Origin: Candidatus Hodarchaeota archaeon
Lineage (GTDB): Archaea > Asgardarchaeota > Heimdallarchaeia > Hodarchaeales > Hodarchaeaceae
Direction of reading: 5' to 3'
DNA length: 32,866 nucleotides
Assembly (NCBI GenBank): GCA_016839815.1
Contig: JAEOTM010000150.1
Coordinates: 1-32,866 of the forward strand
A program made the position numbers and the translations under genes. Below are positions 20,781-29,695 of the stretch, one piece after another; positions within the stretch are counted from its first letter, which is position 1, and every line of letters starts with the position of its first letter. The notes under the pieces are model-generated. The model saw only the letters and a list, made by a program, of their open reading frames with translations, searched no databases and was not told the DNA's origin.

Positions 20781-21800
20781 CTACCAATCGTCGTCTCCAT
20801 ATAATCCTGGAAAGTAGTACTGATCTCCTGAATCGAGCGAGGATACCTTTCGTGCGATTTTTTGACTGACAAGACTCTCTAATACTCTCATAACACGTTG
20901 CTGATCCCATTTAGAATGCATCATGACTTCCTCAATTGTGACGTACCCTTTCTTAATTGCTAGATTAAATATATTCCTTGCATCTTTTCCAAGGGTTACA
21001 GGTGTAAACTCGACAATCTTTATCCCAGATTGAGTTGAAACACCCTCGATCAACGATTGCTTAGTGAGTTGTTTACAAGCCTTTTCTAAATCTTTCAATG
21101 TGAACTCCAAATCTGGAATTTGATTTTTTAAGGAAGTATATAGATTTGCCATTGAAATATAACCACCTGAACTTGCACGTAAGGTTTTTCCTTGTTCAAG
21201 GGTTAAATCAGCTAGATTATCGATAAACTTTCCTTTTCCGAAAATTTTGGGCTTTTTAGTCGCATCTAATGCGGTGATTGTGAGAGTTCGTCCCTCTTTT
21301 CGTAGTAACTCGCTTTCTAGTTGTTTAATTCGGGAATCATATTTCTTTTGTAAGTTCTTAATCCCCTCTGTTGAGACTGGTGAGCCATTTGCCAGTTTGT
21401 TTTGCACTTGTACTACATCTTCTAATCGTAAGATTTGCTCACGAAGATCTAAAAGTTCATTACGGAAATCTAATTCCATATTTCCAAATTCAAGATCTTC
21501 AGTCAATTTTTTGGATCGATCTGAGATTTGATCACAGAGAATTGCTGCGAGTAATTGTGCAACACGGATTTCTCCACTTTCCTTTAGGTTAGAAAATTTT
21601 TTATCTGGGTGTAGAATCATATCTGGTACAGATTCACTAAGATATTGAATCTCTTGAAACTGTGTATAAGATTTAATAACCAGGTCCGATAAATGTTTTA
21701 CTTTAATGGAAGCAGCATTACTCAATTGATTAAGCGCATTACTTGCAAGTTGGTATTTTTCTCTCAAAGTAAGAGTCACCAGTTTAATTCTTTCTGACAT
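20781..21800 (-). CDS. ESCRT-II Vps22/36 (EAP30/SNF8)-like protein with long N-terminal helical/coiled-coil extension
   Basis: GGYISM..L, DLEKACKQL, P..L.KD...I..LA..KGYVT..E......W...R....L..L, QYYFPGL match the tandem winged helices of SNF8/Vps22. Confidence 0.88.
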   Translation of the reverse strand: MSERIKLVTLTLREKYQLASNALNQLSNAASIKVKHLSDLVIKSYTQFQEIQYLSESVPDMILHPDKKFSNLKESGEIRVAQLLAAILCDQISDRSKKLTEDLEFGNMELDFRNELLDLREQILRLEDVVQVQNKLANGSPVSTEGIKNLQKKYDSRIKQLESELLRKEGRTLTITALDATKKPKIFGKGKFIDNLADLTLEQGKTLRASSGGYISMANLYTSLKNQIPDLEFTLKDLEKACKQLTKQSLIEGVSTQSGIKIVEFTPVTLGKDARNIFNLAIKKGYVTIEEVMMHSKWDQQRVMRVLESLVSQKIARKVSSLDSGDQYYFPGLYGDDDW

Positions 21801-24416: not shown

Positions 24417-24644
24417 AAAATCTCCTCAAAAAATTAAGCTTGAATTTGTATACGGATATTTCTTCATATTCCCTGAAAAGCCATATTCAAATAAAGGTAA
24501 AATATCTGATGGATGAGATTCAATCTGCCTTTTATTATAACTCTTGAAGGGATTTATCACTAAGGGAAAATCCGGAGAATTTAACGTTTTTTTATCAATA
24601 AATAAATTTGAATAAATAAAAAGAGGGGAGCGATTTAATGATGA

Positions 24645-24811
24645 AGCCACTGGTGGGAATTTCAAATAGAATTCCGAGAAATACTATTTTTTGAACCCAC
24701 GACATCCTCCTGTCTGGTTCTCAACAGATTTAGCTGTGAGTAGTACCAAGGAGGCGCTATAACCGTGCTTCGCCGAGATGATCTTAAGAAAATCTCATAA
24801 GCCACAGTGGC
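24645..24811 (-). tRNA. tRNA-Thr(GGT) with three introns (D arm, 29 nt; 37/38, 32 nt; 59/60, 31 nt)
   Basis: Acceptor GCCACTG/CAGTGGC with U73; anticodon stem CCTCC/GGAGG with GGT at 24747-24745; T stem GTGGG/CCCAC. Removing 24769-24797, 24712-24743 and 24659-24689 gives a 75-nt cloverleaf. BHB motifs are clear at introns 2 and 3. CCA is not encoded. Confidence 0.92.
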
Positions 24812-25176
24812 AATCAAATCTTCCACTTAATTGGAATTCAGCATGAGTAGAAGTCTATGGAAACTCCGATGTTGAGTATTTTAGAATGTTTTTACGGTTA
24901 CCTAGAGAGATTTACTGAGAGAAGTATGGATTCTTTCCACCAAATTTCCACCAAATTTCATAAACGCTTTAAATTTTTACCTTAAAAGAGTGAAATCTGA
25001 ATACTCAAACTCACCTTCGTAAGTTATCTATCGAAAGCAGCCAATTTTTATTTGAAAACTGCTTTTGAGAATAAAAAGGAATATTTAAGACCTTCAGATC
25101 GTAGATACAAAATGAAAATATGTACAAGTCTTTATGGAACAGTTATTGATATTTCAAGTAATTTTTTGGTGTACAA

Positions 25177-26019
25177 GTGATGGTAGAGTCGTTACTAAAC
25201 CTAATCCTCCTCTTTATTGCAATTTTTCTATTATTTCTTGGAGCTTTACAAGATTGGAAAACTCGAGAGATTGTAGATTGGATCTGGGTGGTAATGATTG
25301 TAAGTGGATTCATAATTCATCTGTTACTGATTATTATACTGTTGATGGATAGCACAGAAGCCTTAGAAGACCTAAAAATGTATCTTATCCCTTGGTTGGG
25401 TGGTATTATTTTTGCGCTATTTCTAGCAGTATTTTACTCATTGACTGGATTAGGAGGAGAGGCTGATAGAATAGCATTTATTGCCATTGCATTCATCTCA
25501 CCTGTTCAATTACCCTTATTCTCACTTCTTGATCCAAAATATGATGCACTTATATCCATTATTCCCAGAATATTCAATGTATTCTGCAATACATATATTT
25601 TAAGTATTTCTGTTCCACTCCTCCTCTTCTTCTATAATCTAGTCCGTAGAAACACTGGTAATCAGACTATATACGCCTTAAACAAACCAATCCTCACAAA
25701 AATTGGTTTGTATTTCATTGGATATCCCCGTTACACTAAAGGGATTTTAGAGGAAATTAAAAAAAAACCTTGGCATTTTGACTTTCTCGAATTATATGAC
25801 GAAATCTATGGCTGGATATTTGATTTCCGAATCGGTTTAGGAACGCCAGAAGAAGATTTTTCTAGATTAGTGGAGATCGCAAAAAAGACTCAAACTCACA
25901 ATAAAGAATCAATCTGGGTTCAACCATCTTTCCCACTAATGGTTTTTTTTCTTCTTGGATTTTTAACTGAAATACTAGTAGGAAATCTCATGCTGATCCT
26001 GTTATCGTCGTTTTTTTAA
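25177..26019 (+). CDS. A24-family prepilin/prearchaellin peptidase (FlaK/PibD-like)
   Basis: Catalytic Asp motifs DWKTREI.D and GLGGEAD, multiple TM helices, C-terminal WVQPSFPLMVF..LG. Confidence 0.88.
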   Translation: MMVESLLNLILLFIAIFLLFLGALQDWKTREIVDWIWVVMIVSGFIIHLLLIIILLMDSTEALEDLKMYLIPWLGGIIFALFLAVFYSLTGLGGEADRIAFIAIAFISPVQLPLFSLLDPKYDALISIIPRIFNVFCNTYILSISVPLLLFFYNLVRRNTGNQTIYALNKPILTKIGLYFIGYPRYTKGILEEIKKKPWHFDFLELYDEIYGWIFDFRIGLGTPEEDFSRLVEIAKKTQTHNKESIWVQPSFPLMVFFLLGFLTEILVGNLMLILLSSFF

Positions 26020-26234: not shown

Positions 26235-26759
26235 TTGGAAAAAGACACCCAGGAGATTACTAGTTTGATAGATCCACGAAGGTTTGACAGTGTACTCAGT
26301 AAAATCATAAAAAGTGAACCCGGTATTCGAAAGATTATTCTAGTCGACCGAACTGGTCTAACAATTGCGCATGTATCCAAGTTTAGTTATGTATCTGTCG
26401 ATGTTGATGGTATCGGGGCAATTGCCTCAGCAGTCTTCATGGCATCTGCAGAACAAGGATCTAATCTGACAATTGGCGGTTTGGATATCGTTACTTCAGA
26501 GTTTGATACAGGGAAGATCTTTGCTAGTGCATGTGGTAGAGGAATTTTAACAATTATTTCGGATGCAGAGGTCAATATAGGTATGATCCGCTTACTCATG
26601 AGAAAAGCGAACGAAGAGCTAAGCTCAATTCTTGATGAGTTTTTAGCAGGACAACCCTCTCGGACATTGCCTGGAACTCCTTCTAAAGCACCTGAAGTTC
26701 GTACTGGGCTTGAGAAAGATGAACTTGAAGCCGCACTACGAGAACTTGAAAAATTCTAA
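26235..26759 (+). CDS. Roadblock/LC7 protein (MglB-like) with linker and C-terminal helix
   Basis: ILVDRTGLTIA, IGAIASA, VNIGMIRL; directly upstream of an MglA-like GTPase. Confidence 0.9.
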   Translation: MEKDTQEITSLIDPRRFDSVLSKIIKSEPGIRKIILVDRTGLTIAHVSKFSYVSVDVDGIGAIASAVFMASAEQGSNLTIGGLDIVTSEFDTGKIFASACGRGILTIISDAEVNIGMIRLLMRKANEELSSILDEFLAGQPSRTLPGTPSKAPEVRTGLEKDELEAALRELEKF

Positions 26760-26801
26760 TCCAAACGTCTATCCTCCTAGTCAACGAAGGAGCCAAATTG
26801 A

Positions 26802-27383
26802 TTGCGAAAAGACGCAGAAGGTCGTCATCGATTCAAAATAGTATTTTACGGCCCCTCTCTTTGTGGAAAAACTACTACTCTAGGTTGGTTATATCATAAA
26901 GTTGAAGGCTTAGAAAAGGGTAAATTCACACAGCTCGCAGATCCACATGGCCGTACATTATTTTTTGATTTCGCACCGATGCAAGCAACAACAGGAGTAG
27001 TATTTGATGTTTATACTACAGCAGGTCAAGATAGACATAAACATCAACGTAAAATAGTTATTCAGGGTGTAGATGGCATATTATTTGTTGTAGATTCCAC
27101 ATCAGATCAACTGAAAGAAAATCTATCATCTTTCGAGGAACTCGCACTGCATTTGGGAGAAGAATTAGGTAGAACTATTCCATTAGTGATTACTTTGAAT
27201 AAACGGGACATGGAAAATGCACTACCTCGGTCAGAGTTAGTAGAAAAATTGAATTTATCTAAATATCCAATATATGAGACTGTAGCTACAACAGGAATAG
27301 GAGTAAAACGTGCTTTCCAATCACTTGCACGGGAAATTTTGATGATTCAATTATACGGAACAAAGACATCTCAGAGTGATTAA
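26802..27383 (+). CDS. mglA: MglA-family small GTPase
   Basis: KIVFYGPSLCGKTT, MglA signature RTLFFDF, TAGQ, RKIV..GVDG..FV.DS, NKRD, ATTG.GV. Confidence 0.9.
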   Translation: MRKDAEGRHRFKIVFYGPSLCGKTTTLGWLYHKVEGLEKGKFTQLADPHGRTLFFDFAPMQATTGVVFDVYTTAGQDRHKHQRKIVIQGVDGILFVVDSTSDQLKENLSSFEELALHLGEELGRTIPLVITLNKRDMENALPRSELVEKLNLSKYPIYETVATTGIGVKRAFQSLAREILMIQLYGTKTSQSD

Positions 27384-27646
27384 TCTTTTTTCTTAAGTAT
27401 TACCGTCCAGCCTCTTTTCTCAACTACTTCAGTGTTTCTGTTCAACACAGTTTTCAGAATTGTAATAGCTTCCTGACGTGTGTTGTATGGTGCATTTTTT
27501 AAAAATTTGATCTTAACAATTTTTTCCTTCTTTAATCGATTACTAAGTTCGATAAGGAAGGATTCAGATAAGCCATTTTTGCCTACTTGCAGGTTCGAAG
27601 ACTCGGATCTAATATTACGCAGGTTTGGTTGATGTACCTTGGGCAT
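27380..27646 (-). CDS. YhbY/CRM domain RNA-binding protein
   Basis: QVGKNGL....L.E....LK....VKIK, VEKRGWT.IL. Confidence 0.9.
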   Translation of the reverse strand: MPKVHQPNLRNIRSESSNLQVGKNGLSESFLIELSNRLKKEKIVKIKFLKNAPYNTRQEAITILKTVLNRNTEVVEKRGWTVILKKKD

Positions 27647-27899
27647 GATTTTCGCTACCTTCCAATCAGGAGCGATTTGTTATGATAATATTATACTTTT
27701 GCTTTCTTACCCCTAAATTCATTCTAGTTTGATAGATTGTAATGGAAGGAGATTTTCTTCGTAATATCTACATATTAGGATCTTATATTACTTTGAGTAG
27801 AAAGAATGACTTAAGTAGGATTATTCTCCTTGTACACCTTCTCATTCGGAAATATCTCGGAATTAGAAATATATTTATAGGAGAGTAACTAAAATTCAC

Positions 27900-28352
27900 A
27901 TGTCTACGCAAAGATATGTGCAGAATTTTGTTTACAAGGGTGTAATAATGTACATTCCCGATAGTGATGCAGATCTACAAATGCATAAGGAAATCGTTGG
28001 AGTCTTGGAAGCATTTGTTAGTAAATTGCCAGCCATAGACTTTGCAAGCGTTGTTAGTCTCGAAGGGCTTCCAATTTCATCTTGGCCTCCGAAATTACCT
28101 GGTGACTTAGATGATGTTCGAATTGCAGCCATGACCGCAGCAATTCTCAGTCTAGGTGAAAGAGCAGTCATGGAAACAGGAAAGGGGGAAATGACCCGAA
28201 TTCTTGTGGAAGGAAATGAAGGTTATCTCATTTCAGTTCAATCAGGCTCTAAAGCTGTATTAACTGCTTCAGCAAATCGATCTGTAAAACTAGGCTTAAT
28301 TTTTCTTGATATGAAACAGGCCGCTAAGAAGATTGGGGAGATACTGGGTTAA
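27900..28352 (+). CDS. Roadblock/LC7 domain protein
   Basis: VVSLEGLPI, RIAAMTAAILSLGER, G.M..I.VEG..G, LGLIFLDMK.AA. The true start may be a downstream ATG. Confidence 0.92.
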   Translation: MSTQRYVQNFVYKGVIMYIPDSDADLQMHKEIVGVLEAFVSKLPAIDFASVVSLEGLPISSWPPKLPGDLDDVRIAAMTAAILSLGERAVMETGKGEMTRILVEGNEGYLISVQSGSKAVLTASANRSVKLGLIFLDMKQAAKKIGEILG

Positions 28353-28447: not shown

Positions 28448-29695
28448 TTAATATAACTTACTTCTCATTGCTTGAACTCTTTGAAAATAAAAATCGTGAA
28501 GAACAGTGTCATTTAGTGCTTGCGCAGTTTCCGCAGCTCTCTCATAATAGATCATCGCTGAATCATACGTTTGTTTAATGTCCTCCAGATTACCAAATAT
28601 CCCATATGCAATCATAAGATTTTTGGAATCACCAGATTTTTCAAACGATTCAATTGCTTCTGTCAGATAATGGGTTGCCTGGACATCACTAGAAACATCA
28701 CCCATCTTTAGATTTTGACAAAGCACTTTAGCGATATTAACTTGGGAAATTGCTAAGTTTATTTTATCATTACGCTCTTCTGCATGACCACGTGCAATAT
28801 CAAAGTTTTTAAGGGCACTATCATAGTTGGCTAAACGAAAATAGCATTCTCCAATATTTATGTATGCATTCACAACAGCGTTGTGCATATTGGCTTTTTT
28901 AGCTTTTTCTAAGGCGTTTTCAAAAACTGAGACAGCCTCTTGAAATTCATTCTGTTCATAGAGTAATATTCCCTCGGTAGAAAAGACATTCTCTTCTAAC
29001 ATGGGATCACCTAATTCCAAAGAATACTTTCTAACAATTTCTAGACGTTCTTTCGCAAGAGGATAGTTTTTTGCTTCTAAGGCTACCTCTAATTGTGCAA
29101 ACATGGCATGGAATTGACCATTTAAATCGGCTAATATTGAAAAGATTTGATATGCTTTTTGAAAGCCAGAAATAGATTTCTTTGGATCTGTAGTCAGTAG
29201 TCTACGACCAGAATCAAGTAATCTCCATGGTTCTTCACCTATAATATCAGCGATTTGTCTCCATTCTTGCTTTGAAATACCGCAGATCACACTTTTACTT
29301 CGCCATTTTTGTGGAAAGTCAAATAATTCATTAACAAGATCTAGAAGAAGGTTATTATCTCCTCCAGCTTGGGCTGCGACACTTTGAGGGCCAACTGCTC
29401 TAAGCTTAAGATCTCCCTCGGAAAATTCAAATAAAACACCAAGAGGAACCGTTTTCTTCTTGTCTTCTCCCCATTTTCTACCAACAATGAGCAGAAAATT
29501 CTTTGATGGAAATTCAATATCTTCACGAATAACTGTTTTCAGTGCAAGTAACCAATGGTAATCTGTATCGAAAAAACTCGATATTAATCTACCCTGAAAT
29601 TCGGGATCCCAATCAACTAAATCTTCAACGTCCGCTAGCTCAATTTCCTCCTCCTGACCAGCCCCTAAAGCAAAATGAACTTTCCAAATGACCAT
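28448..29695 (-). CDS. Tetratricopeptide repeat protein with an unassigned N-terminal domain
   Basis: Repeats such as G..Y...EF.EA...FE.AL, AY.NIG.CY...ANYDSAL.NF..A and G.L......YDSA..YYERA. Confidence 0.85.
   Translation of the reverse strand: MVIWKVHFALGAGQEEEIELADVEDLVDWDPEFQGRLISSFFDTDYHWLLALKTVIREDIEFPSKNFLLIVGRKWGEDKKKTVPLGVLFEFSEGDLKLRAVGPQSVAAQAGGDNNLLLDLVNELFDFPQKWRSKSVICGISKQEWRQIADIIGEEPWRLLDSGRRLLTTDPKKSISGFQKAYQIFSILADLNGQFHAMFAQLEVALEAKNYPLAKERLEIVRKYSLELGDPMLEENVFSTEGILLYEQNEFQEAVSVFENALEKAKKANMHNAVVNAYINIGECYFRLANYDSALKNFDIARGHAEERNDKINLAISQVNIAKVLCQNLKMGDVSSDVQATHYLTEAIESFEKSGDSKNLMIAYGIFGNLEDIKQTYDSAMIYYERAAETAQALNDTVLHDFYFQRVQAMRSKLY

Follow-up and report, generated by a model that had tools for sequence, protein, structure and literature searches.

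The minus strand of contig JAEOTM010000150.1 from a Candidatus Hodarchaeota archaeon (GenBank assembly GCA_016839815.1) carries a 167 nt element at positions 24811–24645 of the window, by which we mean the whole stretch of 32 866 nucleotides that was analysed. Deletion of three segments of 29, 32 and 31 nt (24797–24769, or the sequence-equivalent 24799–24771; 24743–24712; 24689–24659) leaves a 75 nt cloverleaf tRNA-Thr(GGU). The introns total 92 of the 167 nt, the sum given in a preliminary description of the locus, and separate four exons of 14, 25, 22 and 14 nt with a G+C content of 56%, against 35% for the window. The spliced 75-mer is called as tRNA-Thr(ggt) by ARAGORN with all stems paired, and displays a 7 bp acceptor stem, a 5 bp anticodon stem, a 5 bp T stem, a UUCAAAU T-loop and a 7 nt anticodon loop with U33 and the anticodon GGU. 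Direct reading of the product gives U8, A14, G15 with C48, G18 G19, A21, G26, U33, A37 and U73; CCA is not encoded at the 3′ end of the gene. The features of the locus are as follows.

24849..24867, minus strand: upstream block with TATA-like TTTCCATAGA / TTTTAATAGA, kept in the five closest species (60 nt upstream comparison); possible promoter
24798..24811, minus strand: exon 1, tRNA positions 1–14; acceptor GCCACUG, U8, G9, D-stem GCUU, A14
24769..24797, minus strand: intron 1, 29 nt, D-loop 14/15; relaxed bulge–helix–bulge (BHB) motif, placed by junction scan, nulls and intron-free orthologues
24744..24768, minus strand: exon 2, positions 15–37; D-loop G18 G19, UAGC (3′ strand of the D stem), G26, CCUCC (anticodon stem), U33, GGU (anticodon), A37
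24712..24743, minus strand: intron 2, 32 nt, canonical position 37/38; hBHBh′, H UUGG/CCAG 4/4, h = 5 bp anticodon stem
24690..24711, minus strand: exon 3, positions 38–59; GGAGG (3′ strand of the anticodon stem), variable loop AUGUC, T-stem GUGGG, T-loop UUCAAA
24659..24689, minus strand: intron 3, 31 nt, T-loop 59/60; canonical hBHBh′, H UUCA/UGAA, h′ AAUAG/CUAUU, h = 5 bp T stem
24645..24658, minus strand: exon 4, positions 60–73; U60, T-stem CCCAC, acceptor CAGUGGC, discriminator U73
24611..24622, minus strand: T-rich run TTTTTATTTATT, 23 nt past the tRNA 3′ end; possible transcription stop

T-rich trailers are also found in the orthologues. A 79-residue open reading frame with a TTG start (24426–24665, minus strand) covers the final 21 nt of the tRNA and is probably spurious. 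The neighbouring genes encode an ESCRT-II EAP30/Vps36-like protein (20781–21800), Gins51, aIF2-alpha and, at 25177–26019 and 26235–28352, an A24 prepilin peptidase followed by a Roadblock/small GTPase/Roadblock module (two Roadblock/LC7 proteins and an Arf/Ras-type GTPase); a convergent gene for a TPR protein lies at 28448–29695. ESCRT-II, Roadblock and small GTPase genes are typical Asgard eukaryote-signature genes, and the Heimdallarchaeia, with the Hodarchaeales, are the Asgard group placed nearest to the eukaryotes.

Bulge–helix–bulge motifs and the position of intron 1

Introns 2 and 3 have the coordinates and motifs given in the preliminary description, and both possess the canonical BHB elements, namely a 4 bp central helix (H), two 3 nt bulges, one per strand, and one or more outer helices. 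Intron 2 combines a complete H (UUGG/CCAG) with the bulges UA|C and AC|A and h = 5; its h′ has one contiguous pair, with a longer helix beyond an A–A mismatch. In intron 3, H (UUCA/UGAA, 4/4) is flanked by the bulges AA|A and AU|U, and both h′ (AAUAG/CUAUU) and h comprise 5 bp. Intron 1, which does have the length of 29 nt, the inner helix GAGAU/AUCUC and the relaxed motif ascribed to it earlier, falls outside the canonical class and is HBh′-like. When it is cut at 14/15, H is GCU/GGC (3/4 pairs), with G10, C11 and U12 paired to G, G and C and with G9 mismatched, the bulges are UA|U and AA|G, the 5 bp h′ directly adjoins the bulge and h = 0.

The motifs were compared with those of shuffled introns (n = 20000 each), counting the shuffles that reached the observed H plus h′. 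These numbered 419 of 20000 for intron 2 and one of 20000 for intron 3. For intron 1 an H of at least three pairs was reached by itself in 21% of shuffles, in keeping with the finding that the relaxed class taken alone is frequent by chance (see also bioRxiv 10.64898/2026.10.13.758758), and the observed H plus h′ was reached in 34 of 20000 (0.17%). The minimum free-energy (MFE) fold of the 167 nt precursor (−53.7 kcal/mol, z = −3.4) contains the acceptor, anticodon and T stems, the BHB of intron 2 and the hairpin of intron 3. Near intron 1 the fold instead favours another local pairing, GCUU/AAGC, in agreement with a relaxed motif whose selection would depend on the enzyme.

Three points would favour a reading in which EndA removes only the 37/38 and 59/60 introns, and the 29 nt D-loop segment stays in the mature RNA as an expansion or is lost by another route: the relaxed motif (with its incomplete H and lacking h), the lack of a BHB at the D-loop in the MFE fold, and a published caution that D-arm insertions may in some cases be something other than introns (bioRxiv 10.64898/2026.10.13.758758). 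We regard this reading as improbable. Besides the rarity of the combined motif among shuffles, the 14/15 site is the only 29 nt window in the whole gene with an H of at least three pairs and an h′ of at least five. The helix GAGAU/AUCUC is constant in all five species that carry this intron, while its loop varies. This site is uninterrupted in three congeners, and in 14 others a different intron, whose H has 4/4 or 3/4 pairs, occupies a position one nucleotide off. Finally, a retained segment would create a 39 nt D-loop with A14 parted from G18 G19.

The preliminary description had called intron 1 a D-arm 5′-side intron and had left its junction at either 12/13 or 14/15. Sequence comparison places it in the D-loop at 14/15, with U13-A14-G15 in the mature tRNA, so that the second of the two junctions stands and the first, within the D stem (5′ strand), does not. 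A scan of junctions in this genome (G000) and its four nearest relatives gave a BHB-like motif at 14/15 only. The other junctions tried in this genome (11/12, 12/13, 13/14, 15/16 and 16/17) gave worse motifs or a mature U15, the latter being the outcome of the 15/16 cut. The intron-1-free orthologues (loci L009, L012 and L054) read GGCUUAGC, and the D arm obtained with the 14/15 cut, GGCUUAG (U13, A14, G15), is that of the intron-free orthologues and of the genome's own tRNA-Thr(UGU) and tRNA-Thr(CGU). A cut at 12/13 would likewise leave 3/4 pairs in H (GUGG/UCGG) and a 4 bp D stem, and would give A13 and a Watson–Crick 13:22 pair. Such a cut is nevertheless very improbable: h′ would be absent (0 bp), H would take G7 from the acceptor stem, and A13 would disagree with the U13 of the intron-free orthologues and of both threonine paralogues. 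Applied to the congeners, it would also leave U, C or A at position 13, depending on the genome; when the same genes are cut at 15/16, the mature sequence is constant.

In these other congeners the D-loop intron lies at 15/16, with H GCUU/GAGU or GCUU/GAGC and mostly 4/4 pairs. Three of the genomes have U or A rather than G before the 3′ site, so only the 15/16 cut yields G15 in them. No alignable similarity between the 14/15 and 15/16 introns was seen by eye, and the genus appears to contain two different D-loop introns, one nucleotide apart.

Orthologues, copy number and visibility of the gene

The comparison covered 21 congeners (22 genomes of the genus including this one) and an outgroup from another family (G041). 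One matching orthologue was found in each of the 21 congeners. The flanking PepA24, GINS and aIF2alpha genes were all recovered at 16 of the 21 loci and in part at the remaining five, all of them short or cut loci; none of the three was found at the outgroup locus. The introns are distributed as follows.

This genome and its four nearest relatives: D-loop intron of 29 nt at 14/15; 37/38 present; 59/60 present
Three congeners: D-loop intron of 45–47 nt at 15/16; 37/38 present; 59/60 present
Eight congeners: D-loop intron at 15/16; 37/38 present; 59/60 absent
Two congeners: D-loop intron absent; 37/38 present; 59/60 present
Two congeners: D-loop intron of 28 nt at 15/16; 37/38 absent; 59/60 present
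G005: D-loop intron absent; 37/38 present; 59/60 absent
G010: D-loop intron at 15/16; 37/38 absent; 59/60 absent

Six of the eight possible combinations of the three introns thus occur among the 22 species, and the outgroup has only the 37/38 intron. The D-loop intron is missing from three congeners, the 37/38 intron from three and the 59/60 intron from ten. For each intron, the orthologues without it align colinearly with the ligation product that is predicted; intron 2, for example, is missing exactly at its predicted junction in loci L014, L017 and L056. Since the absences fall exactly at the predicted junctions in every case, these genes act as natural 'spliced' controls. The gene of G010 (L056, G010:C13:46301–49321), which keeps only the D-loop intron, lies near 1437–1557 on the plus strand of the locus and is inverted with respect to GINS and PepA24.

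Among the five closest species the exons are 100% identical, compared with 47–94% identity for the introns and 47–63% for the flanks. Across 20 orthologues, eight of 74 exon columns vary; exon 1 is the same in all 20 that were extracted, and the 21-mer GGTTATAGCGCCTCCTTGGTA of exon 2 has an exact match in all 22 genomes of the genus. The T-stem pairs 50:64 (U–A, C–G, A–U) and 52:62 (G–C, C–G) change on both sides, across intron 3, and the helices of the introns, including h′ of intron 3, are likewise maintained through changed pairs. The pattern is that of exons under purifying selection and stems with compensatory change.

A second tRNA-Thr(GGU), for which the preliminary description had advised a search, was not found in the whole genome by ARAGORN with introns allowed, by BLAST or with the 21-mer pattern; ARAGORN did find tRNA-Thr(CGU) and tRNA-Thr(UGU). 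The assembly is a metagenome-assembled genome of 206 contigs totalling 4.24 Mb; its completeness is 89.5% and its contamination 7.8%, and a second copy may have escaped assembly. Such a copy could be the working tRNA-Thr(GGU) and the present locus a decaying pseudogene, and dead copies do occur in the genus, as the one described below for G012 illustrates. We consider this highly unlikely, given the invariant exons beside drifting introns and flanks, the compensatory changes in the stems and the presence of one copy in 22 of 22 genomes of the genus, with the flanking genes wholly or partly recovered. True decay, moreover, looks different: in G012 the 3′ half of the extra copy is lost and its anticodon stem is broken. 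This truncated second tRNA-Thr(GGU) (L008 451–590, G012:C25) is situated some 1 kb upstream of the intact copy, has the D-loop and 37/38 introns and a mismatched anticodon stem, and is by its sequence a pseudo-copy or an integration scar.

Unspliced, the gene escapes ARAGORN and Rfam, as the preliminary description had anticipated of standard scans. ARAGORN calls no tRNA in the window; Rfam has no match to the gene at the gathering threshold, a whole-genome search with RF00005 places no match on the contig, and region 24550–24900 has no tRNA match even at E ≤ 10. Two plus-strand Rfam matches to C/D-box snoRNAs (E = 4 and 7.6) lie far under the gathering threshold and were dismissed as noise. 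Taken as a proxy for the spliced product, the orthologue of G005, which has only the 37/38 intron, scores 52.5 bits over the full RF00005 model (gathering score 29); its exons differ from the spliced product at eight of 75 positions by manual count, six of them in stems, where they make up three compensated pairs. The best RF00005 match of the genome is its intron-free tRNA-Thr(UGU) (76.3 bits), with which the spliced product shares 53 of 73 positions. A global alignment of the 167 nt gene with this tRNA, made without reference to any motif, recovered the T-loop insertion exactly, but differences between the anticodon stems caused the other two insertions to be scattered. In the whole 4.2 Mb genome there are 21 RF00005 matches and 34 ARAGORN calls, several of the latter being doubtful, among them calls with 787 and 953 nt introns, a 'Pyl' at C135:18617–18724 and a 'SeC' at C32:37975–38111.

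In the long open reading frames of the window, ACU and ACC account for 159 of 302 threonine codons. With this gene left out, the genome would seem unable to decode these two codons, about half of its threonine codons.

Predicted maturation and the splicing machinery

The genome encodes two paralogues of the splicing endonuclease EndA (G000:C6:19449–19997, 182 residues, and C6:50802–51437, 211 residues), each of which matches PF01974 and PF02778, and an RtcB ligase (E = 3.7e-166). The 182-residue protein aligns with the catalytic α subunit of Aeropyrum pernix EndA (E = 2.4e-43) and is gap-free through the Crenarchaea-specific loop; its Tyr120, His128, Lys159, Arg152, Trp179 and Lys39 correspond to Tyr125, His133 and Lys164 (catalytic), Arg157 and Trp183 (recognition) and Lys44 of the A. 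pernix protein, in which Lys44 of this loop is needed for cleavage of a D-loop intron (residue roles from PMC3241643). The 211-residue protein matches the A. pernix β subunit weakly (7e-4) and, by manual reading of a single alignment with Methanopyrus kandleri EndA, apparently has Val at the position of the catalytic His. From these sequences the enzyme is assigned to the two-subunit (αβ)2 type with the Crenarchaea-specific loop (L1 insert), a type that has been reported for Asgard archaea (Kaneta et al., 2018). The broad-specificity endonuclease expected in the preliminary description therefore has a plausible counterpart in this two-subunit EndA with its Crenarchaea-type loop lysine, and the same lysine, being the one that A. 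pernix EndA requires for a D-loop intron, is a further argument against retention of the 29 nt segment as part of the D-loop.

We conclude that the locus is very probably a functional gene for tRNA-Thr(GGU), present once in this Hodarchaeales (Asgard) genome and interrupted by three protein-spliced introns. The three-intron tRNA-Thr(GGT) proposed earlier for 24645–24811 is upheld by the cloverleaf obtained on splicing, the BHB motifs, the junctions seen in orthologues, the conservation of the exons and the lack of a second copy in the searches described above. In the predicted pathway, transcription would yield a precursor of about 167 nt with introns at 14/15 (29 nt), 37/38 (32 nt) and 59/60 (31 nt). 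Each intron would fold with the adjoining exon into a BHB, canonical for introns 2 and 3 and relaxed for intron 1, and the (αβ)2-type EndA would cleave each 3 nt bulge between its second and third nucleotides. Ligation of the exons (14, 25, 22 and 14 nt) by RtcB would then yield a 75 nt tRNA that decodes ACU and ACC. We infer transcription, cleavage at the predicted sites, ligation and the order of intron removal from the sequence.

Proposed intron turnover and relation to other interrupted tRNA genes

When mapped on a tree built from the three flanking proteins (649 columns), the distribution of the introns calls for at least five state changes for the D-loop intron, two for the 37/38 intron and six for the 59/60 intron, or at least 13 in total. 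Some of these changes are probably exchange rather than gain or loss. The cassettes compared were those of L009 (G003), L012 (G017) and L008 (G012) against L010, L013, L015 and L016. The G003 and G017 cassettes have intron 2, intron 3 and the 60 nt upstream in common, and a T stem reading GCGCG is found in both of them and in that of G012. The cassette tree unites G003 with G017 (SH-aLRT 94). According to the flanking GINS, aIF2alpha and PepA24, each belongs firmly with a different sister species, and the flanking proteins reject a G003 + G017 clade (ΔlnL 165, p-AU 1e-25, for a group that was named after the tree had been seen). The downstream 40 nt of G003 follow the flanks. Whole tRNA cassettes, with promoter, exons and introns, thus appear to have been exchanged between species. 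From these short sequences and the three-gene tree we tentatively suggest that introns turn over unusually fast, with cassette exchange, at the single-copy tRNA-Thr(GGU) locus of this Hodarchaeales genus, a reading that we consider quite possible but by no means secure.

Near-identical copies of the three introns were not found elsewhere in the genome by BLAST, the one match being to itself. The tRNA-Thr(CGU) and tRNA-Thr(UGU) genes of congeners (G009, G014, G015 and G011; loci L048–L052) contain a 59/60 intron that is ∼68% identical to intron 3 (21 of 31 positions, counted by hand). The corresponding genes of the present genome, tRNA-Thr(UGU) at C64:6555–6627 and tRNA-Thr(CGU) at C6:59366–59473, are without a 59/60 intron. 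It is suggested that the T-loop intron may have spread or been converted among threonine isoacceptors, whose T arms are nearly identical.

As many as three introns per tRNA are known from the Thermoproteales (Sugahara et al., 2008; see the review PMC4033280), which resemble the present case in having up to three BHB introns in the D-, anticodon- and T-regions and an (αβ)2 EndA with the Crenarchaea-specific loop; they are hyperthermophiles, whereas the gene described here comes from a mesophilic, AT-rich Asgard genome (35% G+C). The view in the preliminary description that triple introns are known mainly from that order has been overtaken by reports of multi-intron tRNAs in Asgard archaea in 2024 (PMC11291895) and 2026 (bioRxiv 10.64898/2026.10.13.758758). 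In Atabeyarchaeia and Freyarchaeia, 92–95% of tRNA genes contain introns, over half of these genes having several (Valentin-Alvarado et al., 2024; PMC11291895). Asgard tRNA genes may have up to five intervening sequences each, D-arm insertions are systematically missed by tRNAscan-SE, and BHB enrichment, repeated gains and, in most genomes, two EndA paralogues have been described (Goswami et al., 2026; bioRxiv 10.64898/2026.10.13.758758). The same work gives fewer than one insertion per gene for several Heimdallarchaeia lineages and does not mention the Hodarchaeales.

The gene described here is like those of Atabeyarchaeia and Freyarchaeia/Jordiarchaeia in belonging to the Asgard superphylum, in its several BHB introns at positions that include non-canonical ones, in the missed D-arm insertion, the clean T-arm motif and variable presence among relatives, and in the two-paralogue (αβ)2 EndA. 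It differs in coming from another class (Heimdallarchaeia/Hodarchaeales) and in that the whole gene, rather than one intron, is unseen by ARAGORN and Rfam. The nearest experimental parallel is the pre-tRNA-Thr of A. pernix, whose anticodon-loop or D-loop introns are cut by an (αβ)2 EndA that needs Lys44 (Hirata et al., 2011; PMC3241643; PDB entries 3P1Z and 3AJV). Both cases concern introns of threonine tRNAs, and the EndA α subunit of this genome keeps the loop lysine and the Tyr/His/Lys triad; each A. pernix tRNA-Thr described in that work has a single intron, whereas three lie in one gene here and are known from sequence. Multiple short introns at non-canonical tRNA positions are also found on the eukaryotic side, in the red alga Cyanidioschyzon merolae (PMC3728597), where the genome is nuclear and the enzyme is TSEN, and no direct relationship is implied.

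The kind of element, the enzyme and the evolutionary volatility have already been described in other Asgard classes, and the tRNA-Thr(GGU) gene is a clean new example that refines known biology rather than a new kind of element. It extends heavy tRNA interruption with D-loop introns to the Heimdallarchaeia/Hodarchaeales. Numerous other tRNA genes of this genome are probably masked by multiple introns as well. As ARAGORN and Rfam overlook the gene entirely, the tRNA complements and completeness estimates of Hodarchaeales metagenome-assembled genomes will be understated, and a census built on called genes could overlook tRNA-Thr(GGU). The genus-wide series of orthologues, in which each intron is present or absent, supplies clean controls for the splice junctions and material for studies of gain, loss and exchange. 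If the proposed rapid turnover is true, it would make the locus a natural system in which to follow how archaeal tRNA introns come and go, and would suggest that the tRNA genes of Hodarchaeales are more interrupted than censuses of called genes report.
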